From Obrimoposthia wandeli (taxonomy: Eukaryota), in contig CDROCS010004090.1 in NCBI GenBank assembly GCA_977020255.1, positions 62,001 through 126,000 on the forward strand: a DNA stretch of 64,000 nucleotides, in the 5' to 3' direction. The number at the start of each line of letters is the position of its first letter. Within the stretch, counting starts at the first letter, position 1. Made by a program: the position numbers and the translations under genes. The notes under the pieces were generated by a model, which was not told the DNA's origin, did no database searches, and saw nothing but the letters and a program-made list of their open reading frames with translations. Positions 4,683 to 57,500 of this stretch are shown one piece after another.

Positions 4683-5688
4683 TTTGTTTTCTTAAATGTA
4701 TTGTTAAACTTGTCTTGGCCCCGTACATGAAATCTATTAGTTGTCCGGAATCATCTCTAATATTTAATTCAATATTGTTTATAGAAAAGAGAGAAACTGG
4801 AAGATACATTGGTTGATCTATACACATACCGACAGCGTCCCCATATCTAGTTTCATTTTTAGATATCCATATTGTTCTCAAAAGTGGAACTCGCTGTCCT
4901 CCTACAAGCGTTGGTTCTATTAAATTAGTATAAATATATAAATGATTAACAGCATTTAAAAGTTTTGCCTTATTTTTTTTAGCTTTTATGGTTTTCAAAG
5001 GTATTTCTGTTTAAATCAAGGTTTTTAGCGAGTTTATCATCAAATAAAACTCGTATTATATTTCTCTTTACTGTAAACGTTATTTTACGATTTTTTAATG
5101 TTACACATTTATCAAAAAATTCACTACATTCCTTCTGTATTAATTTACAGAAATTCACTTCACTATCTAATTTATAATCTTTTGAAAACATTTTCAGTTC
5201 CACTACATACGTTGGTCTCGTTTCAACTAAAAACACTTTTGTTACTCTATCAGGAACATTTTTAAACGATTTAGATGAGGCTATATCAGATCACTTCATA
5301 CCTACTTCTCTGCTTTTCTGTCAGATCCAAATATAATTTGAATAGGTTTTGAAAAATGTTTTAGTCGATTTTTAAATCTGACTTTGTTTTTTTCATATAT
5401 TACTTTCACTTCTTTATCTATACAATTGTAATAGAATTTCCCTTTACTATCAAACCCAATCACAACTTCAATTGATTTTTCATGATCAACTTCTTTTGTA
5501 AACGAAATATGTGAGTTTTTTCTGATAGTAATTGGAGAATAATAAAAGGAAAATTCTGTTAAAGCCGCTTCCCATTCTCCTTGGAGATTTATAGGATTTT
5601 CCCAATCGATAATAAAGCTACTAGCGTAATTATCAGGTTGAGTCTTCGGACATCCGTTACTAGGTAAAACCATATACATAGACTTCAT
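4660..5688 (-). pseudogene. Minor capsid protein (penton-like, single jelly-roll), frameshifted
   Basis: N-terminal MYMVLPSN..INLQGEWEAALTEFSF (5302-5688), a middle fragment (4979-5236), and C-terminal LYIYTNLIEPTLVGGQRVPLLR..MYLPV..IELNIRDDSG..TIHLRK (4660-4998). Confidence 0.88.
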
Positions 5689-9770: not shown

Positions 9771-10037
9771 TAAATGTTTTGAAAAATAATTTTGACTCGT
9801 ATTTTGTTTTTTCTCCTCTAAATTATATAGATCTGACCGATTTTTTATCCTATAAATTCTAAAACTGACATAGATATTTAACATGTAAGGATATTTGATC
9901 ATCATTTTCACCCATCACCCGACACTCAACGACTTTCATCCATCACCCATCGACTTTCACCCAACACCCATTGACTTACACCCACTGTCCAACACCCAAC
10001 ACCCAAGGAAGTCTGTGATATATACCCGTCCCGAGCC

Positions 10038-10221
10038 TTTCGCGCCAAAAGGCGCGAAAAAATTTGTTGGGACCCCCCCACCCCTGTCCTTTAAAACCGT
10101 GCATGTGTGTGGAGTGAAATTTCACTCCACACACCTACACAAAATTTCACTCCACACACATGCACGGTTTTAAAGGACAGGGGGGTGTGGATTAGACCGG
10201 ACACATCCACCTATTCATACT
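10038..10221. repeat. Terminal palindromes of element 1
   Basis: 9-bp stem TTTCGCGCC-AAAA-GGCGCGAAA (10038-10059); perfect 42-bp inverted arms at 10081-10122 and 10142-10183; overlapping perfect 30-bp palindrome at 10105-10134. Confidence 0.9.
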
Positions 10222-14421: not shown

Positions 14422-17400
14422 CTATGCCTGGTCAAGTCCAGCCTTCTTTTCCTCGATAACGTAGATGAGAAGTCGCCACATTTTCATAACAAATATATCG
14501 GCTTCTTCCTCCAAGATCTGAAGAGACGAAATAAAACCATCAGAAATGCAAAGTTCGAAAATAAAACAAATGTTTCGATTAAAGTTTATTCCATGTCTCT
14601 GAGAAATCTTGTATGAAAAAATTCACGTATACTCACCACAGCGATATCTGCTAGGATCTGGTCGGGCGTCTTATGCTCAAGCACTTGATCGCAGATAAAT
14701 TGTGACAAGGACGGCTCGTCCTCCCCAATGTAGGTCACGATCTTCTTCTTCACCCAGGGCTTGATGCGACTGTCCACGAAGGCCTGAATGAGTATTTGTG
14801 ATCAATAGCATTCGAGGATCACATAAGTTATCCTAAAAACTCCCTTTTTGAACCGCAATTTGTTAGTCATAAACATTTAATTAAGACCAAAGGTGGACTT
14901 AATAAAATGGTGCGGGTTGTTCATGTTTTTATAAACATTGAAACTTAAAGAATGAAATAAATATACATATTCACATTTTTCTAAAACATCATAATCATCC
15001 TGCTCTTCGATTTTGAGAAGAATGTCAAAGGATTTAAGTTGAATCTCAACATCGTAATTACATGGACTTTCAAATTCCGTATGATCATCACTTGTCACTT
15101 TGTGTTCTTTGACTTCATCCGCATTTATATAAAAATTAATCCCGATTGTATGAAATACATTTTTAATTTTCTCTACCAACAAATATGTCTATGCTAAATC
15201 AATTCATTGTACAATTTCTTCATTATTATATTCCTCGAAGTCATTTGTTATTACGATATATTTACAGAAAAATCCAAAGCTTGGCCTATTAAGTTAATTC
15301 ACCAGGAATCATTACAATTAATGTTTTCATTTATTTTTCTCATTCTCAGTTTTATGACCAGGTGCAGCATCAAAAATGTTTTTTATCGAAGAAAAATTTA
15401 GATTCAATACACTTTTATGAACCATAATTCAATTTCGGGTGAAACCATTTTTTTGATAAAGCTGGAAGTTTTGGAGGATATGCAATTTTGTCAGACCGCT
15501 CAAACAAAAGCTAGGTAGATGTATATTCAACATTTACCATACTAGTAGAATCGGGTGGAACACAATCTTCTAGCTAAAATTTATTTCAATTTCACTGCTG
15601 ATATTAGCCCAGAAATAACATGCTCCACATGTATTTCATCTTCCATGACATACCTGGTGACTCCATCAATTGGAGAAATCATGACCCAATATGTAATTGA
15701 TGAACTTCAATAGTGTTTAATCTATAGCATACGAATTTTCTCTGCTGTAAATAAATATACTCTGCAAATCGATTAGCAAAGCATTTTAAATGGAACGATG
15801 CTTCACTTCTAAAACTGATGTTGATGCATAATCATCCGCCAATAGTCCTTGCACGATCGTATTTTTCCATGGCTTCATACCTTCTGGATACAACCCTTTG
15901 TTAACAGATGAAACATATAAACAAACATCTTGGCTTATTTTGTGTTGGGATCTGTAATGATCATCTGCAACTTTCTGTTTTCTGCTCATTGGAAATACTC
16001 TTTTCGCTATGATCTCTTACTGGTTAACATGGAGGCACTGACAAAGTTTAAAAACAATGTGTCCAGTCTAATGAAGGCGATGATTGCTTTGTATACTTAT
16101 CACTAAAATTTCTCCTTGTTTTTCACAATCAGATGTTACTACAGAAGAAATTGCAGCGGCGATTGGTATTCCACTCTATTTAAAATGCTACAAAAAATCA
16201 TGATAATGATTTATTAAAACGACTTTTATTAAAATCCACGGGAAGATCGCAAAAACCCTGTTGGTAGATTAGTAAAATATGCAAGTCATATTCAAAATAC
16301 GAATTTACGAGATGACTAGTAGAATCGATAATGTTTACTACTTTTTAACGAAATGGATTTAAAAGATTCCAAAATTAATTGGGGATTTCCTGAAATTTCC
16401 ATTGGTTATGAAAGTCATGGCAGACATTTTGCGATTTGCTTAGAAAACAATCTCAAACATTATATGGAAAAGAATAAAGTATTAGTTATTCCTAGAAAGG
16501 AACATATAATAAAAAAGAAATACTATTACGTCATGACGATATATTTATATTGTTAGAATATTGTTTAAAAACCGTCGATTGCACATATCATGTCACATTT
16601 TCAGATTAATAATTAGAAATGAAGTCTTTTTCGTAGAAAAATGTGTGGACTTCTTTAATTTTATTGTTAACTTATCACACAAAAATATCGTCAGTGATAC
16701 TTTCTTAAACACTTACGCTATCAACCATATCCCATTCGATCTTGTAGGCGAACAAGTCCGCCTTGCTTGTGGGGATGCTGTCTATGATCTGCTTCACCAG
16801 CAATCTGCGGTCTACGACACTCGCTTCTATGGTCTCTGTTGAGTTTACTGTTTCCGGCTCGGTCAGTGTTGCAGGAGCGACAGGCTTACTCTCAACAGGC
16901 TCTACAGTCAGCGGTAACGCTTCTTGCTAGAAGAGAGAAACACTTAGATAATATATGAACATTACATAAAGTCGACAAAAATTGAGTACTAATCGACGCA
17001 ATAAGTCCCCTATTTATTCAAATAAAAATGTTTAAGGTATTAATTTGTATAATTAATGATTAATAATAGTTTTAGAAACTAATTAGAAAAGTTGCTGATT
17101 TGTATATTAAGATTTCAGAAGACACATCAATATGTTCCTGTTTAGAAAATACTGCAGTTAACTACTTAAAGTTGCTGATTTGTATATTAAGATTTCAGAA
17201 GACACATCAATATGTTCCTGTTTAGAAAATACTGCAGTTAACTACTCAAAGTTGCTGATTTTTAAAGCACCTTTAAAAATTAAGTATTTTTACAAGTATT
17301 AAGAAATTTACGCTAAAATAATTATATATTTCGTTAATTCATTTTGTAAAACGCAAATTATATTGAACTCAAAAATAAAAGTGAATACAAATATTTATTT

Positions 17401-20400
17401 TTAATCAAATTTTACTAGTGTTTATTTCAACTGTCTACTAGAAACATTTATAATTATTGGAATTGAATGTCTATTGAATCATCACTTTTACCATTTCTTC
17501 GTTTGTTTTTCTTTCATACATCAATATATATGCTCAATAAATTATTTTCACTACTACTCCCTCTTTAAGTAATCAAACTTCCTAAAATAAGAGGTATACT
17601 AAACTTTCCATTTATTGTACAAAACTATTTTGTTTGAAAAAATGTTTAGAAAATACTGCAGTTAACTACTTAAAGTTGCTGATTTGTATATTAAGATTTC
17701 AGAAGACACAACAAGACGTTCCTGTTTAGAAAATACTGCAGTTAACTACTCAAAGTTGCTGATTTTTAAAGCACCTTTAAAAATTAAGTATTTTTACAAG
17801 TATTAAGAAATTTACGCTAAAATAATTATATATTTCGTTAATTCATTTTGTAAAACGCAAATTATATTGAACTCAAAAATAAAAGTGAATACAAATATTT
17901 ATTTTTAATCAAATTTTACTAGTGTTTATTTCAACTGTCTACTAGAAACATTTATAATTATTGGAATTGAATGTCTATTAAATCATCACTTTTACCATTT
18001 CTTCGTTTGTTTTTCTTTCATACATCAATATATATGCTCAATAAATTATTTTCACTACTACTCCCTCTTTAAGTAATCAAACTTCCTAAAATAAGAGGTA
18101 TACTAAACTTTCCATTTATTGTACAAAACTATTTTGTTTGAAAAAATGTTTAGAAAGTATTATTGACGAAAATATTTACATGGCTCATAAATGATGATTG
18201 GTTTCATAAAACTGAAAAAAATTGTATTATCAGTGTAATGATATATATTTTAAAAATTTCCACATTTTTGTTATTTGATTCATATTTGAGTTTGTCAATC
18301 ATGAGTTTCTTTTTCTCATCAAAGAAATAATGGGCAGAAATATTTTCACAGGACATAAAATGAGTAAAATTGGAAAATAAATAATGATCAACTAAAAGAA
18401 GCCTGTAACGCAAACTCTATTTAGACCAGTGCCCGGGAAACTTTTCATTTGGCGGGCCAAAATGTAGATTTTTTGAACGCTCGGGGCCAGAAATGCGAAA
18501 AAAAAACCAAAGTTCATAAAAAATCCCTAAAACAACCACATGACAGGGCTAAAAAGACTGTATTTCAAGTATAACTGTACAATTCCTGAAAATGGGATGG
18601 ATGGAACTGCTTCTTCTGATTCATAATAGCACATATGTCTGGTTTCATCCCCGAGGAAGCGATTCTCAGAGTGTTTTCCAAATGTTCATCTGAAATAGAG
18701 TTTCTGTTCTTCGATTTTGAGTACTTCAACTTGGAAAAGAATTGCTCACAGAGATAAGTGCTGCCGAACAGCGTCACTGTTTTCATTGCATGATGAAGAA
18801 GGTTCGGAGAAGATTCATCAGAGACACAGTCTTTGTAGAACTCGACTAGTGGTTTTGACAAGAATTGTGCACTCAAATCCATATTGTTCTGCAGATCAAT
18901 CAATTCTAACTGCAGATTCGTGGGAGCTGTCACTGGATCAACAGAAAAAGGCATTGAGAAGATCTTGAAGTCATTTTCGTTTGCCCGAAACTCTTGAAAA
19001 CGCCGAGAAAACTCTGCTGTGAGTTTTTCGATTTCAGTGGAGTATCTTCCTCCTTCTGGCTTCAATTCTTTCTGACCTTTCAGACAAGGGAAATGATCGA
19101 AAACATTGTTCTCCAATTAACCTTTCCAAAGAAGCAGCTTGGCTTCAAACGACTTGATATCATCAAAGAGATTGTGAACGAGTTTGTCCTTTCCCTGCAT
19201 AGACACATTCAATTGATTCAACTTTTCAGTAATGTCGACCAAGGCAAAGTCGCAGAGCCACTGTTCATCGGAGAATTCCAGTAGAGGCCTTCCTTTCGAC
19301 TCCATGAACTGTGCAATTTCTTCTCTCAGCTCCCACATCCGTTTCAGAGTGCGCCCTCTACTCAGCCATCTCACTTGAGAAAAGTACAGAACGTCTTTGT
19401 AATTCGCAGCCAATTCCTCCAAAAGTTCTTTGAATTGGCGATGATTCAGTGCCCGAGCACGGATGAAATTCACAGTTGATAATATTTTAGCCATGATTTC
19501 CTGGAAACCAATGACCTTCGTGCACAAAGATTCTTGGTGTATGATGCAGTGGCACCATATCAACGTTTGGGGAATGTTTCTGGTTTGGAGCTCTTTCTTT
19601 AACATGCCTTGAAATCCTTTCTGCTCCCCAACCATTGCAGGTGCACCATCTGTGGCAATTCCAACGAGTTTTTCATAATTCAAATTCGCTTTCTTCATTG
19701 CTGAATCACACTCCTGAAAAACGTCCTTTCCGGTACAAGTGTCCTTCATGGGGCACAGAGCAAGAAGTTCCTCAGTTATATTGAACTCATCATCAACACC
19801 TCGCACGAAAATGGCCAACTGAGCAGTATCTGAAATGTCCGTGCTCTCGTCAAGTGCCAAGGAAAACACTTTAAACTGAGAGGCTGCTGTGTGCAACTGG
19901 TCAGAGAGATTTTTTGACAATTCCTCGATCCTCGTACCGATTGTCCTAGCACTCAGGTTGAGACTGTTTAAAATAGGAGCTTTCTCTGGGCACATTGAGT
20001 CAAAAACTGCTTTCACACACTCTTTCACAAACTCTCCGTCACTGAATGGTTTCATCCTCTTTGCAATTATCTCTGAAACTACGTAGCTCGCCTTTGTGGA
20101 TTTTTTGAATTCTCCTTCTGATTTGGTAAACACATTTTGTTGAGATGACAGCTTTCCCTTCAGTTCTTTGACTTTCACAGCTCTTTGTTCTCCTTGCCAC
20201 TCATCAAACTTGGAAGAGTGTTTTGACATGTAATGACGTTTGACATTGCTTACTTTGGCAACAGCGATCGTTTCTGTGCATATAAGGCAGACAATGTTTC
20301 CTCTGTTCTCCACAAAAAAATAGTCTCTTGTCCAGTCCTCATTAAACGCACGATTTTCAGAGTCAACTTTACGTTTCTTGAATGCCATTTTTACATTGGT

Positions 20401-33500: not shown

Positions 33501-36500
33501 TATAAGGTCTTACAATATGAAGTTTTAATTGGATTATTTAGCTTAGGAGCAATAGAGCCTAAAAAGCAAGGCTCAGTGGTCACTTAATAATTTTAGAATG
33601 GGGCAAGCAGTGCATTTGTTCCACGCCAAAAATATTTTTATCAAAATAATTGCTGTGACATCAGCTGTTTGCCTTAGATATTTCCAATTACTCAAGGAAT
33701 CGAGCATATTAGCAAGTGACCTACATTATTATTGTTATTTGCAAACAGTAAGAATATATTTTCCTAAAATTAGATACGTAAAAACCTTCTGATTATAAAA
33801 ACTAATAACTAAATTAAAACTAAGCTACTAGAGAGCATAAAAGTTCTACTTTTTCGTACATGGACTACTTTTTAACGCATGGAGTAAAGCTTAATGACAC
33901 TACTCAAGTTGTAATAATGCAAACCAAATGGTGATTGAGGCTTATAATCATCTAACACACTCAAAATACTTAACTTTCTTTAAAATTGAATAACAATGTT
34001 TTGACAATTTTACATGTTTAAAACTTTTGATTCACTTGATTTGCAACAATACTTTCTTTGGTATCTGCAATTTAGAACTGTCAGTAATTTAGAGATATTT
34101 GAGAGTTTTGTCTTCACTTTCTAGAATATAAATTAGAATATAATTAAGTAATATTATACATTTATAGAAAATATTAAAATTTTAAATAATCATAGAAGTT
34201 AAGTTTTCTATCGTAGACTTAATTCAAAAGACTCAGATTCTACAAACACAAGTTATATTTATACATGTATACAGGAGATTTTATAAACAAATATTGTCGG
34301 TAGGAAATTTCAAGATTCTGATTACATAACTCTCCCCTTCACTATTCAAACTTGCATTTCTTCAGCCATTCGATTCTCCTAGTGGGATTCCACTTGAAAA
34401 CTGAATTAGTATCTGTCGTGGACTCAAAAAATTATTATTCTGAGTGGGCCTTCTTTTCTGGTAACACAATATCCTTTTATATAGGAAGTCAAATGTCTTG
34501 GAGCGTATGCAATCCCTTTTTCGTTTCTCATTTCACCAGTTGGCTCAATACTGCCCCAATCGCACCAAGGCTTGCGTCTGTATAAATTATAAATTTTATA
34601 TTTCACTTTAAAAAAGTATAATATGGGAGCTATTGCTAATATTTCTTTCAGGAGTGCAAAACTTGTTTTACAATCCGGTGACCATTGTATTGACTTCTTA
34701 TCTCCGGAACCCGCGCATATAGTGGGGCTGCATTATTGGCATAATCTTTAATACATCGTCGATAATAGTTTGCCATTCCTAAGAATGATCTTAGTTTTCC
34801 GTTACAATATGATTCTTTAAAATTTATTACTTTGTTAACTTTCGACTGATTTGTTTGTATTATGCTTTCTGTTATGGTATAACCTATGACTTTTAACTGT
34901 TACTACCAAAGTAGCATTTATTAGAGTTTATTTTGAAGCCTGCAACTGTAATTCTTTTAAATACTTCACTAATTAATTTATAATGTTTTCTTGGTTGTTA
35001 CTATAAACAAGAATATCATCAAGATATACAATAATTCCGTTGAACAACAAACCATACAATATTTTATGCATCAAACTCTGGAATGTTACAGGTGCTGTAG
35101 CCAACCCAAATGGCAACTAATTGAAACAAAATTGTTCCCGTTTTCTACTGAAGGCATTTTTTGTCTGAGACTCATTCTCTAGATCTACCTGGTAAAATGC
35201 TTGTCCAGTATATATTGTCGTAAATATTTTTGCATCACACAGACAATCAAAGAAGATTCGTGCATTAGGTATTGGAAATGTAAACATATTGGTTACATCA
35301 TTCAATTGTCTGCAGTAAACACACATTCGAATTGTATTCTCTGGCTTCTTCATAATGACTATTAGAAGACCGAAGTTCAGGCATAACTATATTGATAAAT
35401 AAACAGCATTCAATATATATATAGGTCATTATTGAGCAATGTAAGCATACCACACAGTCACACATTCAGCAGCATACATATTATCTAAAGCCCCGTCGGT
35501 TCGTATACCACAGTTTACACAATCTGTTACAATGACCAATGGTGAGTTCCAAGGACTTTCACAACGACTAATTACGTTTACTTTGAGTAAATTTTAAATC
35601 ATTTCATAAACTTGGTTGTCTAGAATTTTGACAGATTGGATCAGCGATAGTCTCAATTTTATGGGAGACAATTTTGGTATATCCTAAATCAAATTTACAA
35701 TGCATAAATATTTTTCCAAACTCCTCAATATAATGTCTTAGAATTGAGTCTTTGTCGCATTTTAAAGAATTACATATTTTAACTGTTATTTCTTTCGAGG
35801 AAAACATTTTCATCATGCAAGACGAGTTCAAATTATATACTTACTGCAGCTTTATCCCGAATGTTTTCCTTGTATCGATACCACTAATAAAATCTGTTTT
35901 AATTTCTTCTACAACGATTATTTCTAAAATTTTCCATTTTCCATTCCACAACTCTTTAGATTGTTGGGGTTTTCTTTCAAACTCTAGAATCCTCGTTTGG
36001 AGGACCCCAACGTGAGTTCTGTAGCGATAGGGTTTACATAAGGATGTGACCTTCCTATTCGAGTATCGGAAAGTTTTTGTGAGGTGTTAAGGCTGTGTGT
36101 ACAAGATAACGTAAAATTCCCTAAAACTATTGTAGTGTTGAGTGGGCTGAATCAATAAATAAATATGACTTCAAATTCAAAATAAGTCTAGTAAAGTCAA
36201 GACCAGAAAATATGCCAAATTAGGTCGGAATCTATCAGTGCCGATGGTAACACTCTGAATATGTCAGGACTTAGGCTAACGTCTCATTGGTTAATTGGCC
36301 AAAATTCTCGGTTTTGTAAAGTTATCTTAGTTACTATCAAATTACGTAATATTCACAAATGTGAAATTGTATATATCAAAATATATTATTTTGTTTTTAT
36401 TTAATCATTTCCCTAAACCTGAATTTTCATTATAGAAAGAATAATTAATCAACTCACAATAAAAGAGAAAAATTTATTTAGGACGATTTTATATATTATT

Positions 36501-42500: not shown

Positions 42501-45500
42501 GAATAATATTTTAAATATTTTGAGGATTTATAATTATGGCAGAAACTGTAATTTAATATACCTTTTTCTCTTTTAAATCACAATTATAATTTGAAGAAGT
42601 AGATAAGGCACGGCAAAATTATATAGTAATAAATCTTATGTCTATCACTGTTGAAGTTTTATAGGTAAAATTAATTTTATATCAAATTTAGCACTTATGA
42701 TTTTTATGAAATAACAATTAATTTTTGTTGTTAATTAAAATTTTATATTTTTATATTACATTTTTGAACATAATAGTTAAATAATATAATTTTATTAAAT
42801 TAAACAAAGTGTTATTTTATTTATTTTTATTTTATATTTTACATTATATTATATAATTTATTGTGTATTTATTAAAAAATACAATACTATATAATTTGTT
42901 TATAAAATTGGTTTTGAGCTGGTAAAAAAATTATAAAATTTTAATTATATATAAAACAGATTTTTCAATATTTAACTTGTAAAACTTTTATATCTGCCTT
43001 AAATTTGTATCTAACTTTAAATTCGTTACTGTTGCTTAGTTAAAAGGAGTTTAAAATTGATTTTTCTTTTAAATGTTAAATGTTTCTTCATTTCGTAATT
43101 TTTTTCCAGTCAATCCTAATATTTAAATGATTGTTTATATTTTAATTAAAATTGAAAATGATTTTACAAAAAAGAATTATATAAAGTTTAATAAAAAGTT
43201 ATTATTAAATAAATATATAAAATTCTTAGATTAAATGTAATAATTTTACCAATTAATTAAATTAATCTAACTAAATTCCAATTAAAACACTTATTCTACT
43301 TGTGTTATTTGTTATATCCATTCTTTAACATGATTATTGTTCGTAGATTGGACTTTATTTTCCTATACCACCATTTCGAAATTTGATGTATGTAATTTTA
43401 AATCGAAAGTTGTATCAATTTTTTATATTGTTCAGGTAAATATTTCCAAACAAACATTTTTAAAAATAACTTAACTAGAAATACCTTTTAAAAAATATTA
43501 TGTATAAATTCATTAAAAATAACCCTAAAATTCCAACGAATAAAATACAAAAATCCAAATTTTATTAAAAATATGGTGCACAGTATATACGAAGGAGCCT
43601 AAAATCAAAATCTATTTCGCATATTTTGAATTGTCTCAATAATTCTAAAAATGCAGTTGGTATTTCACCAATATCGCTTTTATTGTCGTCTTCATCATTC
43701 CAGTTTTCATTGCCATGGTTGATTATTTTCTTAACAATGATTTAGCTTTTCAAATGCAATTAATAAAAAAGGTCTGACACATCCTTACACGTACTGTTGG
43801 AGGTTTGGCTTTTCATAACTTTCCTCCTTTAGTGAATAAATGAAAGGCATTGATCATTCCTTCACCATGTTCCAAATGTTGGCCTGAATCGTTTGTTGAC
43901 AGATATTTCTAATGACTGTAATATATTTGTAAGATCTCCAGATACGACTGTAATAAAGTAATATAATTTTGCACAATTCTTTCCACGTTCAGCAAATGTA
44001 ATAGAGTATAGTCATAAATAAAAAAAGACACTGGTTTATTTTTTTATTTTAATTTTAAAGCTTTAATTAAAATATAAATAATAAATGAAGATTAAAAAAA
44101 TACGTAAATTAAAATAAACAAAAAGAACTAATTGTATCATTCATTTAATTATGGCGTCATAATTGGATAATATTTTAGTAAGCATTACAAGGCTTTCTAA
44201 TATAATAAAATTCTTAAGGTGCAAATCATTCACGGGTGCATATTATAATCGGAATTTTAGGGTAAGTCATTCAAAAGATTGTTCCAAAATTGGAACAATT
44301 CTTATTAACGAGTTAATTGCATTTTTAATGCATAAAATACTACAAGAAAAATATTCATTGAAGTCATTGTTTGGATCGATGTTTTACTTATCTAAATTTA
44401 CTACTCAAACAAATCTCTCTTCAGGTAACAGGTCAGAATGTTGGACCCTTAAAGAAGATCAGAATATGGCATAACAAAGCTGGAGTTGCTTCTGCCTGGC
44501 ATTTAGAAAAGGTTGGATATTAATTTAATTTTTTAATGTGTGGTAAATAAATGTTGAAGGTAATATTATTTTCAACATAAACTATCTTGTTTCCTTCATT
44601 GAACAAATTGATTAGAAAAACAATAGTAAAAATTCTTGATTGAAAGATCTCATTTTTAAAAAGTGAAATACTCAAAAGTTTAATAATTTTCGTTAAATAA
44701 TAAAATTGACAAAAAAAAATTCTATATATATTTTTTGATTTAAATGCAAAAAGTGCTGGTTCAAGCTAAATAAAAATGTGTTGGTCTTTGTTCTCTTTAT
44801 TTAATACCGTTCATCTGAACAAATGGATAAATAGGTATACTTAGCATTATAATTGCAAAACGAACTTAATAAAGAACTTTTTCATATTTTAATCTAAACT
44901 AAATATTTTAATATCACTAATTAAAATTTCATCGTGTTGAAAAGTTATTTTTTCGACTAAAAAATACTGTTACGTTACTTAATGTACTTTTAGTTTCGAG
45001 ACTGTTTTTGTTGCTCTTAAAAGCTTTGAAATGTAAATGTTGACTTTATCTGATAGGAAATACTTCAAGTTGAATTTGTATAAATGAATTTGTATTAAAA
45101 CATAATTCTTAATCGCTGAAAAATTGTTGTTAATATGAGCTAGCCGAGAATCAATCTTCTCTCTTTATATATAGGCCTCGAGGTAATTAATATAGCAAAC
45201 CCGTAACGGATATTATGTATAGTTTAAAATGCTTGATTGATTGTGTTAAATTTTTTCAAAGTAGTATATAGTATCGGTACTAACTCAAAGGAACAACATG
45301 GTATTGCAGTAAAAGGTATATTGTCATTTTTAGACAGAATGTCGTTAAAATGTATAAATATAGCTTAAAATGACTCAAAATGACTCAAATTTCTACCTTT
45401 TTATTTCAAAATCTATTTGAGTTCGTATGTGTGATTTCCAGACTTGACCAAAAAGTCTTGAAATCGCTCATACTAACTCGATGGTAATAGGTCCCCCCAA

Positions 45501-48500
45501 GGGGTTACATTTTACCGTAAAAAACATTTTTGGCGTTGTATGCGTGATTTCAAGATCTATTTTCACATATGGCGTTAAATATCTTACTGTTTAAAACAAA
45601 ATGTGATTTCAAAACCATTTTCAAATATGGCTCTAAATATCTTTTCCGTTTTAAACAAGAGTAGATTTTGAGTAGATTTTAAGTAGATTTTAAGTAGATT
45701 TTAAGTGGCCAAAGTCTCCCTTACGGAGCCTCCTAAGAGGGAAGCCCTTCATCTGAAGATTTGGCAGCACCTTTGGCAAAGATTATATGTTATATTAATT
45801 TTGTTTATAGTTAAAGAATAATAAAATCAATTAATTATTTATTCATATAATAAATAACATTTAAACCAATAAATCATTTATTCATGTGATACTTTGATGT
45901 TAATGATATTGATATTCTTTAGGGTTGGTTCGAAGAGGGCTAAAGTACCTAGAGTCATAATGATGAAATGATTTTAAAACTAAAGTGTTTCGATTATATA
46001 AAAACCTAACTTCAATATAATTGGTCAACTAATCAAAATAATCCTATATAATAAATAAAACGATTAAACACAAATGTTCTTTATCATTATGTGTTAAAAG
46101 TAATTTAGGAGTTTTTGAGTTTGGTGGACACATCTTATGTGGTCCAATAGGTAAGTCATCAACTTTATCATGTATACAATCCGGATTATGTAAATATACT
46201 TCAACAAGAAAACCCCATACGGTTTTACTTAAATCCTTTTTACTTCCAACTAAATTCAAAATATAATCAAAATTATCATGCACCCATTTAAATTCCATAT
46301 GTGTTAAAGGTTGACTTAAAGCCCATCCGTATAAGTTATTCCTATCTATATAGAGAAGTGATGTATTATCATCGGACTTACAATAATGTTTATTAACAAA
46401 AGTCATACGTCCTCTAATACCTGCTTAAAAAAGATTAAACATTTCCGGATCATGTAGCAATTCTACTTTATGTTTTAATGATTTTATTGCACTACACCAG
46501 CTAAGACCGGGAATACTAATGAAATTAAGAGCCTCAAGATTATCATCCGATCTAACTTTTTGTCTAAAAGCCTCAAATACATTAAAAAGTAAGTATACAT
46601 CAAGACGCATATATTCCATCATATAGTCTTTAATATTAGTGTAAGCTAGTTTTGTCCACATTGTATGAGCTAAATTATATTTATCATCTGTAACACTATC
46701 AGGAAATTCACATTTTGGAGGTAATCTATCTTCATACAACTTAGATTCACTGGAAATATATTCATAGGGAAAAACACCTTTACTAGATATCAAATCAATA
46801 CTAAAATATCTTGATGTATACGGTGAACTTGGAAGATAATAACCAATCTTTCAAGACTAGTTGTTGTAAAAAGATATGAATCTAAAAATTTCAATGTTCC
46901 AGTTGATAATTCTATTTTGAGAGCCATAAACTTTTCACTAGATTTGGGTATGATTGAATAACTTTTCCCTTTTAATTTTGCAAATTTTAAAATATGATGA
47001 ATATCATAATCCATTAAGTTGTGAAAAAGTACTGGTAATATAAGTCTATTACCGAATCTACGATATAAATTACATTTATTACATGCTGCACCCAAGAATA
47101 CACCTGAAATATGATCATGATCCCGTACTAAATCTCTAGTGATTTTATAACAAAGGTAACATATGCGACTCTCTCGAAAAGCTAACCGATTTTCATTTGT
47201 ACATTATTAGCGGTGTATGCATATTATTTCGCCAAAAAGGTGCAACAATTTCATTAAGAATTTCCGTTATTTTATCAATAAAGTTGGTAGCACAATCTCA
47301 ACCGAAATACGAAAAGTATTCTATTGTGTCAGTAACATTATTTTTTAACAACATTCCAACTGCAATAGGAGTATGTATATGTTTAACATACACATCAGGT
47401 TCTAAAATACTTTCAAAATCAGCGTAAACTACAAAAGGAGGTTGAACTGACTTTGACCAATCTGTGAATTCACAATATTTATTATCCGGCATAGTGAATA
47501 AAGTTGTAGTATCAGTATTAAAATTGCAATGGATTTTATGTTTATCATAATCAGCCCCAGATCGAAAACCAAAAAGACATTTCGGACACCAGTAAAGGTG
47601 TAAACCATAACTATGACAATTAAATAATCTATTTAATTTAGGAACACTACAATAATGATAAGTGTTACAGTCTTCTAACAACAGTAAATTAACAATTTGA
47701 TTACATTCCCGTAGTTTTGTTAGGTAAATTATACTAACATCAGGATTTTTCAACACATCTTTAATCGGGTTTTTTTTTTTAATTTCAGAATACTTAAAAA
47801 CTGTAATTGATATTTGGTTATCACGTTCAAATTGAGGTATTGAGGCTAAGGGCATAGGACCTGGCTGACATTTTAACTCATTTAAATATTGACTGTAAGA
47901 AGATGATCGATCTCTATTTTGAACTTCATTATCATTTTTTAATACGCTAAGGATAGCATAGAGAAAACATTTATTATCGCTGTTATTTACATTGATTATT
48001 GCTCTTTTATATACTAATTTAAGTGGTGTTGGTATATATGAAGAACCCGAAACCCTAGATAATTTAGTTAATTTAAAGGAAATTTGTAATATTTTATAGA
48101 TTGACCAACCACTACTCAATTCCGAGTAGTTTTCAATACAATTATTTAACTTATCAGTTCTAATAACAATAAAATCATCATCGAAAACTGCAGCCTTACA
48201 ACTAAAACTCCATGTTTTAAATTGGTTTTCTATGTTTACAAATTGAGATTGAATACCAAATTGGATTTTACAAGGTCCAAATGCATTAATTTTATTTAAT
48301 AAATCATTTTTCATATCGTTATTAATAACCAGTTTCAGCATATTCTGGTAAGATGTAGTATCTAAAATAAGATTATCTTGAAGTGCATCACCTATTTGAG
48401 TACTTGTTATTGCTTCAAGGTCTACAGTTGCTATAAAATCATTATGTAATTCATCAACAAATGGCTTTTCATGTGTATAAAGTAAATCGTTAAAATCTAG

Positions 48501-51500
48501 AGATTCATTTAAATACTTATCTAATTCATTATCATCATTTAAAAATGAAGTGAAATCAAAATTAGGAGGAAATGTTGGACTATTAGGACGTGACCAACTA
48601 TCCACAACTTTGAAATCAAAATTATTATCCAGATTATCAACTGGTAGTATATTATTAATTGTTTCTAGTTTTATAACTTTATTACTTCTTGAAAGTGATG
48701 AAGATGATGATGATTTACGTTTATAATTTGATTTCTTGGTATTAAAGTAAGTTAAATGATTTTTATAAATTGAATAAAAATCTAAATATTTTATGTTTGT
48801 GAACAATATATCACACGAGGGACATATGTACCCGTTTTTAAACTTATATATTTTTCCATTACATCATGACAATTTAAGTCATGACAATTATTAGTACAAT
48901 AGTTATAAAGTTTACATGGTGGTGGGGAACCACCAAATACTTTAGGAAAAATACTTATTAATACGCCATCAAACAGTACATCAACTAACCTATCCTCAAA
49001 GTTAAATGATGTACCTAAACGACTAAAATATAATTTTTGGGTTCCATATATTGAGTAAATTTTCTCAGCTAAGTCTTTTATTAGAGCATCTTGAGTAAGT
49101 TTAATAACTTTAAAATAATTAAGTAAATTTGTGTTGATATTCATAAAACGACCATTAAAACTACAATTAACACCAAACATTTTAGGAAAAAACGGTGACA
49201 AGTACTCCGTCATACAAGACATCAATAACCTTGTCACAAAAATTAAAAAACTTGCAATTTTGTTTAAAATATAATTTGCGTGAACCAAACGCAGTATAAA
49301 TTTTTTTCAGCCAGGTCCCTAATTAGTTTATCAGGTTCAATTTTTATTTGTTTAACGGCATGCAATAAATCAGCATGAAATGTCAATTGTTGTAGCTCCT
49401 TTTTAATTTCCTTCTTTTTAAAACGTCGTTTTAGCTTATCTTTAAGACGCTTACCCTGTTTACCTAGCACTTTAACTTTAGTTATCGATTCTGCGTTAAT
49501 ATTATTTCGTGCATCACGATGATAATTTTTATATGGGGTTTTACTATCGCTATTATCAACTAAAAAATGTCTTATATCCTCGAAAGGAGATGTGTTTGGG
49601 CTTCCTAACGGTGTAACTGGATACTGTTTTTTGAATGAGAAATATTTAGTGTTATTACTGTTGTTGTTATTTTTAAAAGTGGATGATAACACCTCTATTA
49701 CGGAGCCGCCTAAAGCGGGGAGCCCTTTGTCCGTAGACCGGGCATCAATGTTACCATTATTAAAAAAATTAAAGTTTGTCATTATAAAAATATAATAATA
49801 GAGACAAGAGAGAGTCAAGGAGGCAAAAGAGATAATCAAATCAGGTCAGTTTCTAAAAAACTTCAATTTCTCAACTTTTCAATCGAATTCTCAACTTTTC
49901 AATTAGCAATTTCCAATCAAATTCAACTTCTTCAATTTTTCGTATTTCTAATAAATAATTCTAAATAAATCTGAATAAATGATAAAATAAAATTCCTTAC
50001 ATTAAAAAATCGTCAAACAGGTGCGATCATTAATGATAATATCTTGTTTATATACAAGATCAAAATACTGCAACGTAATATTTCATTAAAACAACTTACT
50101 TAAAAAAAACTATAATAAACGCCTACAACGTTGTATATTTTGAAAAATTCTTTTTTCAAATTTCTATTTTAGTGTTTGTAAAATTATTTTTTAAATCTTT
50201 AATATCATTTAAAATATTGTTTTTTAAATAAAACTCTTTACATAATTTAAATTTATATAAATTTTATATTCTAAAAATGTAAATAATATTTTAAAAATTT
50301 ACTTTTAATTGTTTGATTTATGTAATTTAGTATGATCATACAGTATTTTTAGAAATTTTAATTTTGAATTGATATTTTTTTATAAAGGTTTATCATTATT
50401 TTTATAAAACTAATTTGTAAACGATTGTAAAACATGTAATTTATAAATTTATTAACAATTTATAATCTTTATAAATATACTTTTATAAAATAAGTCGTTA
50501 AATAAGTCGAATTTATTTTTAGTTGTTTGTTTTATGTAATTTAAGATGATCATACAGTATTTTTAATACTGATACTACAACTTTATTCACTATTAATTCA
50601 CTTAAACATATACATACTCCCATTGCAGTTGGAATGTTGTTAAAAATAATGTTACTGACACAATAGAATACTTTTCGTATTTCGGTTGAGATTGTGCTAC
50701 CAATTTTATTGATAAATTAACGGAAATTCTTAATGAAATTGTTGCACCTTTTTGGCGAAATAATATGCATACACCGCTAATAATGTACAAATGAAAATCG
50801 GTTAGCTTTTCGAGAGAGTCGCATATGTTATCTTTGTTATAAAATCACTAGAGATTTAGTACGGGATCATGATCATATTTCAGGTTTATTCTTGGGTGCA
50901 GCATGTAATAAATGTAATTTATCTCGTAGATTCGATAATAGACTTATATTACCAGTACTTTTTCACAACTTAATGGGTTATGATATTCATCATATTTTAA
51001 AATTTGTAAAATTAAAAGGGAAAAGTTATTCAATCATACCCAAATCTAGTGAAAAGTTTATGGCTCTCAAAATAGAATTATCAACTGGAACATTGAAATT
51101 TTTAGATTCATATCTTTTTACAACAACTAGTCTTGAAAGATTGGTTAGTTATCTTCCAAGTTCACCGTATACATCAAGATATTTTAGTACTGATTTGATA
51201 TCTAGTAAAGGTGTTTTTCCCTATGAATATATTTCCAGTGAATCTAAGTTGTATGAAGATAGATTACCTCCAAAATGTGAATTTCCTGATAGTGTTACAG
51301 ATGATAAATATAATTTAGCTCATACAATGTGGACAAAACTAGCTTACACTAATATTAAAGACTATATGATGGAATATATGCGTCTTGATGTATACTTACT
51401 TTTTAATGTATTTGAGGCTTTTAGACAAAAAGTTAGATCGGATGATAATCTTGAGGCTCTTAATTTCATTAGTATTCCCGGTCTTAGCTGGTGTAGTGCA

Positions 51501-54500
51501 ATAAAATCATCAAAACATAAAGTAGAATTGCTACATGATCTGGAAATGTTTAATCTTTTTGAAGCAGGTATTAGAGGACGTATGACTTTTGTTAATAAAC
51601 ATTATTGTAAGTCCGATGATAATACATCACTTCTCTATATAGATAGGAATAACTTATACGGATGGGCTTTAAGTCAACCTTTACCACATATGGAATTTAA
51701 ATTGGTGCATGATAATTTTGATTTTATTTTGAATTTAGTTGGAAGTAAAAAGGATTTAAGTAAAACCGTATGGGGTTTTCTTGTTGAAGTATATTTACAT
51801 AATCCGGATCGTATATATGATAAAGTTGATGACTTACCTATTGGACCACATAAGATGTGTCCACCAAACTCAAAAACTCCTAAATTACTTTTAACACATA
51901 ATGATAAAGAATATTATGTAATACATTTCCGTTTACTACAATTCTATGTTTTTCTTGGTGCTGAAATCTTAAAAATTCATAGGGCTATTCAGTAAGTACC
52001 CGTTTTAAAACAATATATAGATTTTAATTCAAACAAGCGGGCAACTAGTGTTAATAAGTTTGAATATGAGTTTTACAAATTAAAAAATAATTCCTTTTAC
52101 GGTAAAACGGTTGAGAATCTTAAGATGCGACTTGATATTAGATTATGTAATAACGATAAACGGTTTGAAAAATTAATTTCGAGTTCTTGGTTTAAACGTC
52201 ATACTCAATTAAATGATGATTTAAATTTAGTTTTTATGCAGAAACAGGAAATATGTTTAGATTGGTCTTCATATATCGGTCAAGCTGTACTATATCTATC
52301 TAAATTACGAATGTATCAATTACAATATGTTGAGCTTGAACGGTATAGGCAAACTTTTAATTGTAGTATTATAATTGGAGCTATGGACACCGATTCGTTT
52401 TTCCTTGAATGCGTGAATATTAATAAGGATAAATTACTCAAAGAAATGATTAAAGGTGGGTATTTAGATACGAGTAATTATCCTAAAACACATCCCTTGA
52501 AAACGTTAAGGCCGTAATTGAAAAAATTTAAAGATGAACTGATTATAATGAATGGGTTTTCTTAAAACCAAAATGTTATTCACTTCAAAATAAATTAAGG
52601 GCTAAGAGTATTTCTTTAAAACAAACAAACTTAAGACATCAAGACTACCATATTGTTATGAAAATGAAGAAATTAATAGTGTTAATCAGTCACGTATATC
52701 ATCGGTTAACCATCAACTTCATACAACATTTACTTCTAAATTTGCTTTAAAATGTTTTGACGATAAAAGGAGATGGGTTTGTAAGAATAAAAGCCTTGCT
52801 TATGGTCATTTTAATTTAACTTAATAATTTTTAATAAGATATATAGTTTTGTTATTGTTGTTGTTATTTCATGTCATCATTTGTACACACACTCATTCAC
52901 TTGTATATATTAATATAACTTTTGTGTTTAATCGTTTTATTTATTATATAGGATCATTTTGATTAGTTGACCAATTATATTGAAGTTAGGTTTTTATATA
53001 ATCGAAACACTTTAGTTTTAAAATCATTTCATCATTATGACTTTAGGTACTTTAGACATGTTATGTGCTCTTCGAACCAACCCTAAAGAATATCAATATC
53101 ATTAACATCAAAGTATCACTTGAATGAATGATGTATTGGTTTAAATGTTATTTATCATATGAATAAATAATTAATTGATTTTATTATTCTTTAACTATAA
53201 ACAAAATTAATATAAAATATAATCTTTGCCAAAGGTGCTGCCCAGTCTTCGGATGAAGGGCTTCCCTCTTAGGAAGCTCCGTAAGGGAGACTTTGGCCAC
53301 TTAAAATCTACTTAAAATCTACTCAAAATCTACTCTTGTTTTAAACGGCAAGATATTTAGAGCTATAATTGAAAATGGTCTTAAAATCACCTTTTGTTTT
53401 AAACGGTAAGATATTTAGCGCCATATGGGAAAATAGATCTTGAAATCACGCATACAACGCCAAAACTGGTTTTGCAGTAAAAGATACCCCCGGGGGGACC
53501 TATTACCATTGAGTTAGTATGCGCGATTTCGAGACTTTTTGGTCAAGTCCGGAAATCACACATAGGAACTCAAATAGATTTTACAATAAAAAGGTAGAAA
53601 TTTGAGTCATTTTGAGTCATTTTAAGCTATTTTTAGACATTTTAACGACATTTTGTCTAAAAAATGACAATTTACAGAATTTTTTTAGACCACTATAGTG
53701 TTGGTACTAACTCAAAGGAACAATACGGTTTTGCAGTGAAAGGTACCCCCTTCTTAGTACCGACACTACATACTACTGTTGGGGTTTCTATATGAAACTG
53801 TGTTCTAATATAGATCCTCTGACTGTGGAGGGCCCCAACGTGAGTTCTATAGAAGCAGGACTTGTAGATGGTTGTGGCCTACTTAATGTTATGCTTGCCT
53901 GTCTCAATCTTATCTGAATGTTTGTTGTTTTGTTATGATCTTAAGGGTTTAGAACAATGCTTTCTAGTTGTAGGAAATCGTTTATTATTAACACACTAGA
54001 CTAACACGAATTAATACGTTTAAGTACGTATTCTAAAAATTTACAATAAAATTCCTAAGACTTCTATAAGTCTCTACACAAGTGGGGATGAACCACGTAT
54101 CGATTTTACTTCAGGTTTGGTTAGTTTATTAGAGTCCTTACTCAAAAAAGCGACAAATCAATTTATGGTTGGACTTTATACGTAAGTTTGCTGATTTGTT
54201 ATGATCCTAAAATCACTTCTACCTTCAACTCAATATTCCAACATAGTCGACAATTCAAATCGATTCAACTTTAATACTTCAATTTCACAAAAAACTCACG
54301 TTTCAATTCAGTTAATAATTTTAATTAATTTCACAAAAAACTTCACTTTTCAATTCAGTTGATGATTTAAATAAATTCACAAAAAACTTCACTACTTCTT
54401 ACACTAAATGGAGAGCCGTCCGTTGTCTGATTAGATAGATTCTTGTCTTCAGTGGTGCTGCTCGCGCTGTGTACTAAATTGGTAGCTGTCCGTTGTCAGA

Positions 54501-57500
54501 TTCGAGAGATTCTTGTCTTCAGTTCCAAATTCTCTCTGCTAGTTCCGCTCTCTGAACAATTTCTTCTCTCCGAATTCTCTCTGGTATTCTGTTTATATAT
54601 CTCTCCTGCAAGGAAAATAATCAATTAAATGTCACTTAACTAATTGATATTCACCTTGGCTGTCAGTCCCACGTGCTAATGAAATTGTCTGTCTCTATTA
54701 GCGGCTGGCTTACTTCTCAGCGGCTCAATCTTGCTTCTTCTTTTTATCGCTGCTTCTCTGTCCTAAACAAAATCAATCCTGCACTTAATTTTAAGTGCAC
54801 CTACCTCGCTGATGTGAATCCGGCTGGCGGTTCTCAGCGTCTTCTCGTATTGGGACGACGAAATTCAGATAGCGCTAATGGCGCTAATGGATTTTTCTTG
54901 GTTACTTGGGAATTAGTTTCGTCTGCTCTGCGTGCACTCTTCTTCGGAATTGACTTGCTAATTTCTAATCTTGATTTGGAAATTCTCTCTAGTTGGCCTT
55001 GTCTAACTGTTTATTATTGAGTTTTCTTGGCTAATTCTTTTTTGGGCGCTTTCTAATAATTTAAACTCCTATATATACTGCGCACTATACATGACCTTCG
55101 TGGTCCTTAATATTTAAAAAACTATTTTTATTTCGATTATTTAATTCTATTATAATTTTTATTTTAATTATAACCTTGCTTTCAAGGATTTTTATTTTGA
55201 TATAAATTCGATTAATTATTTAAAATTATTAAAACCTAATCCTAACACTACCTTTCAACCATATATAACCTATTCAAAACATTTAAAGACGATAACTTTG
55301 AACGAGCAAGATTGTAATTTGTGCTTAAGTGCCGGAGCTCACTTTGGAGATAAGAATTATAATTTCCAGATGTACCAATATGTTTTCGGTAAAAATGTGA
55401 CTCCTGATTATATCTTTAAACTTGACATGATTTGGGACAAATTGATACTTGCGACAAGAGCTATTTGTGCTAATGACAATGTGTAGAATGTTTTCGTCAT
55501 TGTCTCAAGACCCTGAAGTTTGCTTGTTATATAAAATAGCCTTGTTTCGACTTATCTTGATAAATGCTATTAAGGAAACGAACATTAAATACTTTGTTTG
55601 TGTTCCAATTTTTTTAAAGTTGCAATGAAATATTTGATGTTTGAAATATTATGTAAAGCTTTTTATGATGTTCTTTGGTAAGCTGTTGCATTGCATTAAA
55701 ATCTTTGATTTTATTCATCACTCGCTATAAACTGTTTGCCCTCGTGATCTATTCTTCAAGATAAAATCTCCTATATGGTTGTTTATGGAGTTTTAATTTG
55801 AAGAACGACCAGGCCAGTTCAATTGCTATATTTCACTTTCTTCTACCCAGACCCATTGTCAGTATCATTCTAATATTTCAGAAACTAGATAAGATTTCAA
55901 TACGTTTTGATTATAGTCGTATCAAAGTTCATAATATTTTTGACATTGCTTAAGTGACCTAAAATCATTACAGCTGTTATTACAGATCATTACAAACACA
56001 AAATGGCTTTTAAAGCTAATCTAGTGCAAAATTAACACCGGAAAGGATTTTGTTTATTAAATTTTCATTTTGGGAAACAGTAAATTGTATGAGCAAAATA
56101 TTTCAAAATACATCTAAGACTTATGTAAAAATTATGCTTTTAAGTAAGGTTTACACGATGTTTTCTATAGTGAAGAACAAAATTTCATTTAATTATACAA
56201 TTCCTAAATTATTTGCCATTATTTTCCTCGCTTTTAATTTTATATTTAAAATGAATTTTCTCTTTCTAATATTCTGTCTGTTGGGTATTGTCAATAATCT
56301 AGATCTTCTACTGGATATCTCCAAACTGAGCATTGCAATAATTGGATTTTGAATTGTCTAAAAGGAAATATTGATATATGTATTTATCTTTTTTTATGTA
56401 AAAATTATTAAGTAATTTATAACAAAATAGTTTTCATATTTTAAAATCAAATTTGATTTAATCATTTTTAAAGTATTTGTAAATTTGTAAAATATCATCA
56501 TTTGGTGAACTTTTCTATAAAGACGATTTTTTTTAAATAAACACCATGCAACTGTGAATGTTTATTTTTCAAAATTATTTTTTATTCAGGTGAAAATTAT
56601 TCGATACTTGACAAACAGAGAAATATTTATCACGATCGCAGTTATGAAGCGACAAGGAAAATTACCTATAGGCATGGACGTAGTCGATGGCAAAGTAATC
56701 ATAAATCCAATGGCTATTCAAGTAAGCTCATATATTTATTGCTTTAAATTTGTTTCAGTAACTTCATTTACAAAAATGTTATTAACGATAATTGCAAATG
56801 TGGCAATACTTTATCACACAAAATCATATCAAATACTTATTTCACAAAATACAATTTCAAAAACACGAGAACGCTAGAATAAACATTAGTAACTTCAAAT
56901 AACTACACACATTCATAAAATTCATTTTCTATACATCAAGCTTTAAACTACATATAATTAGATAATTCAAATTTGTTGTAATAATTGTTCAGGTTTTACG
57001 TTCATTTCGTTTAATTGCTCGTTCGTTTAATTTACATTTAATTTAGCATGTACTTTAAAATTGACATTTAATTTGTGAATTTGTTAAAATCAAAATACCA
57101 ATTTATTACTGATTAAGAAACTAGAGGAATAGTATGTTACACGTCAAAACTGATCTAATAATAAGTAAAGATCCTCTTATGAAACTATTATTAAATAATC
57201 TTAATTATTAATCATCGAATATCGCCAATGGAGTGCGTTTATTTTTGTATATGATTGGAAGAATTTGGATGATATTTTGTAACCACAAGTGGACCTAGTG
57301 ATTATTTTTCAAGTCAATCTTTTCATGTACATTCATAGTCATAAATTCATACTAACCTGATAAAGTATATCGAAGAGTTGACAGAATTATACGACTTTGT
57401 GAAGGTACAGATTTTAAAATGGATGAAGATAATGTTTTCAATGATCCTATTGAACAGCTTACATACTCTCATGAGCGGCCAAGAATGAATAATAGCCGAC

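Follow-up and report, generated by a model that had tools for sequence, protein, structure and literature searches.

Element 2 is a defective Polinton of 8.5 kilobases (kb) embedded in AT-rich eukaryotic sequence, in a 64,000-nucleotide (nt) stretch of Obrimoposthia wandeli DNA (contig CDROCS010004090.1, positions 62,001 to 126,000; hereafter the window, in whose own numbering all positions are given), and its two ends carry what looks like one hairpin loop in opposite orientations. An initial annotation had taken this arrangement for flip and flop isomers of a terminal hairpin, and hence for possible evidence of hairpin-transfer replication as in parvoviruses and poxviruses. This reading is not supported: the asymmetry does not show flip/flop replication, since no intact second isomer is seen, the tip of the element cannot pair and the polymerase is of the protein-primed type. 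Instead, the ends were most likely damaged differently after insertion, at the unstable fold-back terminus of one old, rearranged copy. As to how, we tentatively favour an unequal, one-sided deletion, once at each end, of a longer palindrome that had no loop. The terminal features, including the terminal inverted repeats (TIRs), are the following.

45260..45268, plus strand: left 9-nt tip, starting AGTAGT, outside the hairpin arm (TIR match)
45269..45283, plus strand: left outer arm, 15 nt (TIR match)
45284..45318, plus strand: 35-nt block oriented like the right loop, ending just before the run of five Cs (C5)
45319..46072, plus strand: remaining left TIR (matches the right TIR in the usual inverted sense)
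52923..53695, plus strand: right TIR inside the terminal hairpin (inverted match to the left TIR)
53696..53710, plus strand: right inner arm (arm pairing)
53711..53753, plus strand: 43-nt 'loop', whose second half copies 53468-53491 and which ends in C5 (53746-53750) plus 3 nt
53754..53768, minus strand: right outer arm (arm pairing)
53769..53776, minus strand: right tip, interrupted by an insert one base before its end

At the right end, coordinates and sequence are as the initial annotation gave them: the arms 53696-53710 and 53754-53768 span 15 base pairs (bp) with one mismatch and enclose a 43-nt loop, and no such pair arose when the last 110 nt were dinucleotide-shuffled 300 times. Folding of the end in silico had been proposed as a check; the folding energy alone is weak (z -1.26 and -0.49; the outside-in 120 nt were matched by 5 of 200 shuffles) and was rejected as evidence. 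A hairpin can form near the right end, but it is not terminal as had been claimed. The true ends of element 2 are 45260 and 53777, 9 nt beyond the arms, which makes the hairpin subterminal. Only 3 or 4 of the nine tip letters pair with the sequence inside, which leaves the 3' end unable to prime in its present form, and the tip remains unpaired in folds. AGTAGT is a usual Polinton tip; it also occurs near the ends of the relatives L007, L011, L019, L022 and L091. In L007 (4755-4778) an identical tip opens the end and a G5-TACC motif comes next, like the right end of the window element read from outside.

The left end departs from a perfect TIR over a short segment. Its outermost part, 45260-45283, agrees with the reverse complement of 53754-53777 at 22 of 24 positions, as a TIR requires. 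The next 35 nt (45284-45318) instead match 53711-53745 on the same strand at 31 positions (0 of 5000 shuffles, best shuffle 22) and the perfect-TIR expectation at only 9, so that the same-strand loop described in the initial annotation is real; the whole same-strand match joins 45267-45318 to 53694-53745 (52 nt, 88%, blastn E 1.4e-11 within the window). The deletion of the left inner arm is equally real and forms part of a loss of 46 nt in total, namely the last 8 loop nt (53746-53753), the inner arm itself (53696-53710) and 23 nt beyond it (53673-53695); the joint shows 3 nt of microhomology. The ordinary inverted match restarts at 45319, opposite 53672, and mismatches across the left-end pieces amount to 2/24, 4/35 and 1/8. 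Because of the 46-nt loss, the window contains no intact 'flop' hairpin.

The 'loop' does not consist of unique sequence. A copy of its second half lies at 53468-53491, and further copies of the arm-plus-loop unit occur within the TIR in both orientations; the arm tail and loop start are found inverted at 53509-53519. The recurrences belong to two further features.

53438..53534, no strand: internal decayed head-to-head palindrome, centre C5|G6 at 53487-53497, folding as a long stem
45453..45555, no strand: left copy of the internal decayed palindrome, centred on the C and G runs at 45493-45504

Each half of the right-hand palindrome aligns to the terminal unit 53703-53750 (0 of 5000 shuffles in each case), and both internal palindromes are older copies of the arm-plus-loop unit, which lie 200 nt deeper in the TIR. 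A C5 run closes the terminal unit at 53746-53750, and a run of this kind also marks the centre of the internal palindrome. On the left the match breaks off directly in front of the terminal C5 run, and the right end departs directly behind it, 3 nt before the arm. Both breaks thus lie no more than 5 nt from C5, the centre of the internal palindrome of the unit, a placement expected in roughly 5% of cases if breaks fell randomly in the loop.

On the tentatively favoured reading, a longer head-to-head palindrome of arm plus 'loop', without any loop and centred on the C run, formerly stood at each end. Such palindromes extrude, break near their centre and heal via one-sided deletions; one-sided deletions are described as stabilising palindromes, and palindromes of 40+40 bp as often breaking in cells (PMC8701086). 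On the left, the centre and the whole inner arm, with 23 nt more, would have been lost and the outer arm kept, while on the right most of the outer arm would have gone, sparing its outermost 15 bp and the inner arm. These losses would have taken place in the chromosome. One loop would then seem to lie in two orientations simply because the remnants differ, no flip being needed, and palindrome pruning would explain the inversion and the loss of the inner arm together, along with the break positions, the internal relic and the excess depth described below. In keeping with it, palindromes beside the target duplication have been described in related endogenous viruses (bioRxiv 10.64898/2026.07.28.741278), and L022, a distant relative by its protein-primed family B polymerase (pPolB), has an 84-nt palindrome at its end. 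The cases of asymmetric palindrome deletion in PMC8701086 and PMC4255720 share the central breaks, the one-sided loss and the minimal joint homology, although the intact precursor is a reconstruction here.

Short-read data bear on this scenario. They comprise four runs from one sample of one study, in which 45-48% of sampled words are present, in the form of short contigs aligned to the right end only (53350-53950); the listings cover 15 of 37 joints, 12 of 52 rows with letters between joined parts and 40 of 161 variant rows. Contigs lose rare forms and may lose palindrome centres, and their summed depth is inflated at variant-dense positions. They run from the TIR interior across the inner arm into the first half of the loop. 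In all four runs the bin holding the arm and this first half is 1.9-3.0 times deeper than position 53688 just inside it, as the palindrome reading expects of a unit present twice per TIR. Relative to 53707-53727, depth falls to 2.1-7.9% at 53728-53748 and to 1.2-2.6% at 53749-53769, which may reflect rarity, or else dropout, with palindrome centres being lost when libraries are amplified; low depth in this part is not in itself proof of absence. Hairpins are reported to block the polymerase chain reaction (PMC8701086), and the centre of the internal palindrome also dips in the X1 data (260 vs 1390 and 1970). In two X2 contigs the tip and outer arm begin precisely at 53754, and the right-end junction is absent.

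Several points weigh against palindrome deletion. The longer terminal palindrome is seen in no sequence, and the scenario calls for two deletions and for a further slight alteration of the right joint, where 3 nt are left over, against one event for a template switch. If the palindrome were family-wide, the depth of 1.2-7.9% over 53728-53769 means that dropout near the centre must be assumed, and the two- to three-fold depth excess of the arm bin is weak, contig depth being inflated where variants are dense. Moreover, three contig joints after 53717-53721 show other continuations, into internal TIR blocks, and the four runs represent a single sample with under half of the sampled words.

A single template switch at the left end, of the 1-3-2-4 type, is conceivable but on the unlikely side. 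The right-end hairpin would originally have stood at both ends, and the switch would leave after the outer arm, copy 35 loop nt from the opposite strand by way of the arm homology and return 46 nt further on; this would have been a single mishap, whether in the chromosome or while the free element replicated by strand displacement. The attraction is that the inversion, the truncated loop and the lost inner arm all follow from one event. The left end does have the corresponding pattern, a flank, the reverse complement of a nearby block of at least 14 nt and a flank, with 15 bp of arm homology at one joint and 3 nt at the other, and element 2 harbours a second, kb-scale inversion with duplication. 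Inter-strand switches are known to invert spacers between inverted repeats (PMC5453318, PMC8794818), and type 1-3-2-4 is the commonest, making up 45% of 794 human-chimpanzee events (PMC5453318). The four-point switching treated in these two papers likewise couples spacer inversion and an indel in one event with the order 1-3-2-4, but it is known from human and ape genomes and ribosomal RNA genes, whereas here a 35-nt block in the terminus of a self-replicating element is concerned. Such a switch needs the right-end form as founder at both ends, however, and contigs seldom contain the outer junction of that form (1.2-2.6%). It would also turn the internal palindrome and the two breaks at the C run into coincidences, and since template switches are rare per base in primate data, a hot spot driven by the arms must be assumed. 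The initial annotation had suggested that the inversion arose during replication or end repair. End repair broadly fits, hairpin transfer is not supported, and two ordinary processes would yield the same picture without any isomer. A caution follows for other elements, in that unequal pruning of a palindrome or a single template switch mimics flip/flop.

Replication by hairpin transfer or cruciform resolution, of the parvovirus or poxvirus type, would have generated flip and flop ends near 1:1, possibly with nicking by an Endonuclease VII/HNH-like domain in the polymerase; we consider this very improbable. It would account for opposite orientations at the two ends of one insertion, and the comparison with adeno-associated virus (AAV) and vaccinia virus (PMC5948225, PMC8956199) is apt insofar as in these genomes, too, the two ends carry one block in opposite orientations. 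In those viruses, however, the hairpin is the very end, and the isomers are complete, about equally frequent and made by the Rep nickase or a Holliday-junction resolvase: the four end combinations of AAV are expected near 1:1:1:1 (PMC5948225), and the vaccinia hairpin closes the genome and is made by a resolvase (PMC8956199). In element 2, by contrast, the palindrome stops short of the genome end and leaves a 9-nt tip outside the arms, with no paired 3' end, and two complete isomers between intact arms are not what is found, the left end having lost 46 nt. Two equal isomers should also give even coverage of the loop, but the contigs cover it very unevenly. The presence of a nuclease-like domain within the polymerase can be cited in favour of hairpin transfer, but this predicted Endonuclease VII/HNH-like domain is common in relatives and has been read as a homing-endonuclease insertion (PMC11161782). 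No match to an HUH/Rep family was found in the scanned open reading frames (ORFs) of element 2, which is an incomplete element. The polymerase speaks for protein priming: it is a pPolB whose N-terminal part is present, and the N-terminal domain has been modelled as the terminal protein in Polintons (PMC11161782).

Another parallel is offered by terminal palindromes of endogenous virophages and subtype 4 polinton-like viruses (PLVs) in Halocafeteria seosinensis (bioRxiv 10.64898/2026.07.28.741278). They resemble the present case in placing a palindrome inside the TIR, beside the target site duplication (TSD), and hairpin priming has been proposed for these related endogenous viruses by analogy with parvo- and poxviruses, with accidental annealing as the alternative (bioRxiv 10.64898/2026.07.28.741278), a proposal that lends hairpin transfer some support. 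However, those palindromes are intact and preferentially accompany elements whose replication genes are mostly not pPolB, whereas element 2 combines pPolB with a 9-nt unpaired tip and two broken forms, and the palindrome section of that preprint makes no mention of two orientations. As a modest gain, the TIR of a pPolB-type Polinton with a fold-back unit at its tip and older relics inside extends the range of terminal palindromes beyond those protist virophages and PLVs. Flip/flop or isomeric Polinton ends appeared in no report found in the literature, most subscription papers lying outside that search; in PMC11296320 the term occurs solely within the title of a reference.

Isomers could also have arisen recurrently without hairpin transfer, if, in protein-primed replication by strand displacement, the growing strand often jumped between the arms onto the displaced strand, so that the block between them inverted repeatedly, and the left isomer later lost its inner arm; we regard this as improbable. 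The TIR is a multi-copy sequence and heavily rearranged, with 37 joints and 52 rows with letters between in 600 nt, and the unit lies in both orientations at several places in the TIR, which shows repeated inversion in the past of the family. Yet an intact second isomer is found neither in the window nor among the contig rows listed from the four runs, where a rare one is possible, and a separate deletion must happen to have removed just the inner boundary. None of the 15 joints listed of the 37 changes strand. A survey of other families, suggested in the initial annotation, offered no support: the only relatives with both tips, L093 and L111, have neither a flipped block nor a terminal hairpin.

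A broader scenario, which we think rather unlikely, is that in this pPolB Polinton family the fold-back end was actively turned over during replication, the block between the arms inverting recurrently and both isomers integrating. The route, just as doubtful, might be jumps to the displaced strand, or nicking or cruciform cutting by the Endonuclease VII/HNH-like domain followed by hairpin transfer. With equally little confidence we add that the 9-nt tip might be restored from the other TIR, old ends staying behind as palindromic relics in a growing TIR. To our knowledge, the start and finish of Polinton replication are known from models and protein structure predictions rather than from intermediates, and the mode is without experimental demonstration. 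A 2006 paper reportedly proposed a replication model. If the turnover scenario were true, genomic copies would record the replication mode of Polintons, and intact ends in two isomers, should they occur, would make it possible to test hairpin-based against protein-primed replication directly, by counting genome copies; the present copy offers no such test.

Returning to unequal palindrome deletion, it presupposes that the two ends have a common history, and both probably belong to one insertion. The features at issue are these.

45254..45259, plus strand: left copy of a probable 6-bp TSD (same six letters at 55253-55258)
53777..55247, no strand: very high-copy insert of 1.47 kb with TG...CA ends and a 4-bp duplication
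55248..55258, plus strand: the 4-bp duplication of the insert, the last Polinton base (one transition) and the right 6-bp target copy

A very high-copy repeat starts exactly at 53777, where 27-86 contigs per run carry unrelated preceding letters and depth rises about 1000-fold; it would qualify as solo-LTR-like (long terminal repeat, LTR). A diverged relative of the insert starts at 35962 and aligns over 109 nt only, so that the 3' end of the insert is provisional. From 55245 to 55258 one reads the CA end of the insert, then its 4-bp duplication, then a single base and finally the six letters found just before 45260, with one transition; this is the order that a nested insert predicts. The 14-letter pattern has one match in the window with 1 mismatch, and 13 of 100 whole-window shuffles give one; the target-duplication pattern arose in 4 of 200 resamples of the 10.2 kb downstream, and the pattern including the insert end (18 nt, 2 mismatches) in 1 of 2000. 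An early argument that the ends are unrelated, there being no TSD, was rejected once the insert at 53777 had been found. The two TIRs also share four letters that are absent from 88-99% of the X2 depth, among 31 variant rows compared; in eight of these 31 rows the majority letter stands in the left TIR and a private one in the right.

A recombinant element with ends from different copies or subfamilies, or a mis-assembled left end, is quite improbable. Such an origin might be suspected from the TIRs, which differ more (44/755) than the inner duplication described below (19/1313; p 7e-8), and from the contigs, among whose listed rows none bridges the right end to its flank. However, a later rearrangement explains the younger inner duplication, and the recovered target duplication (1/2000) and the four shared rare letters tie the ends together. 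The same-strand block differs from the right loop at 4 of 35 positions, in line with the divergence of the TIRs (p 0.14), which disfavours a mis-join because a mis-join would copy exactly. The opposite orientation at the two ends is thus not an obvious assembly error.

The assignment of element 2 to the Polintons, made in the initial annotation, is borne out. The coding regions of element 2 are the following.

46073..47523, minus strand: inverted second copy of the pPolB middle, abutting the left TIR (tblastn; Pfam PF03175, PF02945)
47298..48863, minus strand: N-terminal pPolB part (42% identity over 356 aa to full-length pPolB P0001, residues 184-537, E 2e-82)
48791..49845, minus strand: a pair of unnamed ORFs within the unique middle (no useful Pfam match)
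50561..52824, plus strand: pPolB middle and C-terminal part in several frames, with an Endonuclease VII/HNH-like domain (PF03175, E 1.4e-15)

Polintons, or Mavericks, have a pPolB-type polymerase, TIRs of 100-1500 bp and a TSD of 5-8 bp (PMC10748475). PF03175 is found in both arms of element 2, the gene being broken and partly duplicated; the TIRs (45260-46072 and 52923-53777) are of appropriate length, and the six letters of the target duplication, its right copy behind the later insert, fall within the expected range. The likeness therefore comprises a pPolB with a nuclease insertion, TIRs of about 850 bp, a probable 6-bp TSD and the AGTAGT tip, whereas the differences lie in the defective state, the partial inverted duplication of pPolB and the imperfect inverted repeat of the terminal 60-100 nt. 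The N-terminal pPolB part would correspond to the region that in relatives harbours terminal-protein and vOTU domains (domain names after PMC11161782). PF02945 reaches E 8e-5 in the right copy, under its cut-off, and passes the cut-off in the left one. The right-arm pPolB is 51% identical to that of element 1, another element in the window, and the closest full-length polymerases, at about 49% identity, come from metagenomes. No rve integrase, ATPase, protease or capsid gene was found in the scanned ORFs of element 2, nor do the integrase and capsid-like ORFs of element 1 have a match in it; element 2 is therefore a non-autonomous derivative. A PHROGs scan returned nothing useful, only one weak PHROG of unknown function in the ORFs of the unique middle, and an Rfam scan of 45000-55500 gave no match.

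The interior of element 2 is itself rearranged. Inversion and duplication of the pPolB middle (46073-47523 and 50561-51915) make the element a partial palindrome, its copies diverging by 1.4% and the TIRs by 5.8%. Comparison of the inverted copy with 50602-51915 yields 19 differences in 1313 letters, while the TIRs differ by 44 substitutions in 755 aligned letters and by six indels of 1-11 nt. Since TIR divergence exceeds that of the inner duplication, the kb-scale inversion and duplication postdates insertion or was homogenised. The right copy of the pPolB middle additionally lost about 105 nt near 50593-50602.

Relatives were collected as 120 loci from alignment-based scans, some of them from the same contigs, and at none of the 120 is DNA shared with the TIR of element 2 or with the hairpin of element 1. 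Exact patterns of tip plus arm and of arm plus loop start had no match in viral or metagenome contigs, the L022 arm pattern had none in viral contigs, and a single-protein search for relatives in viral contigs retrieved no locus. In L093 and L111 (positions 1-120 of each) the outer 117-120 nt are near-identical between the two ends, while the inner TIR is about 80-85% alike, which suggests that the tips are kept equal by copying from each other. L081/L098 has one end cut. Of seven hand-picked candidate tips, only that of L022 surpassed all 200 shuffles in folding. L022 is a distant pPolB relative (31% identity to the query) with one end known, in which tandem TIR-like repeats end in an imperfect 84-nt hairpin (5094-5177) that runs from tip motif to tip motif, has a forked loop and includes the tip. 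The anatomy of this end is nearer to parvovirus and poxvirus ends than that of the window element; it can be counted in favour of hairpin transfer, and it suggests L022 as the place to look for turnover. In L015 (5502-5906), downstream of pPolB, a module of about 130 nt occurs in direct, inverted and direct orientation (85-88%), like the alternating TIR units of the window. Long palindromes are also present in L016 (3-251), L056 (439-626) and L011 (134-192), with arms of about 80, 88 and 24 bp, near contig ends or upstream of pPolB.

Elsewhere in the window, near the right side of element 1, 10074-10190 folds into a hairpin whose arms measure 49 bp (94%) and whose 19-nt loop repeats a portion of one of them. 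It adjoins CACCCA-type repeats (9923-10005), with no AGTAGT tip nearby, and could be an end of element 1 or a small separate insert. At 17088-18159 lies a 504-bp tandem duplication (99%) with an 80-bp sub-repeat, adjoining hAT-type ORFs at 18565-20388.

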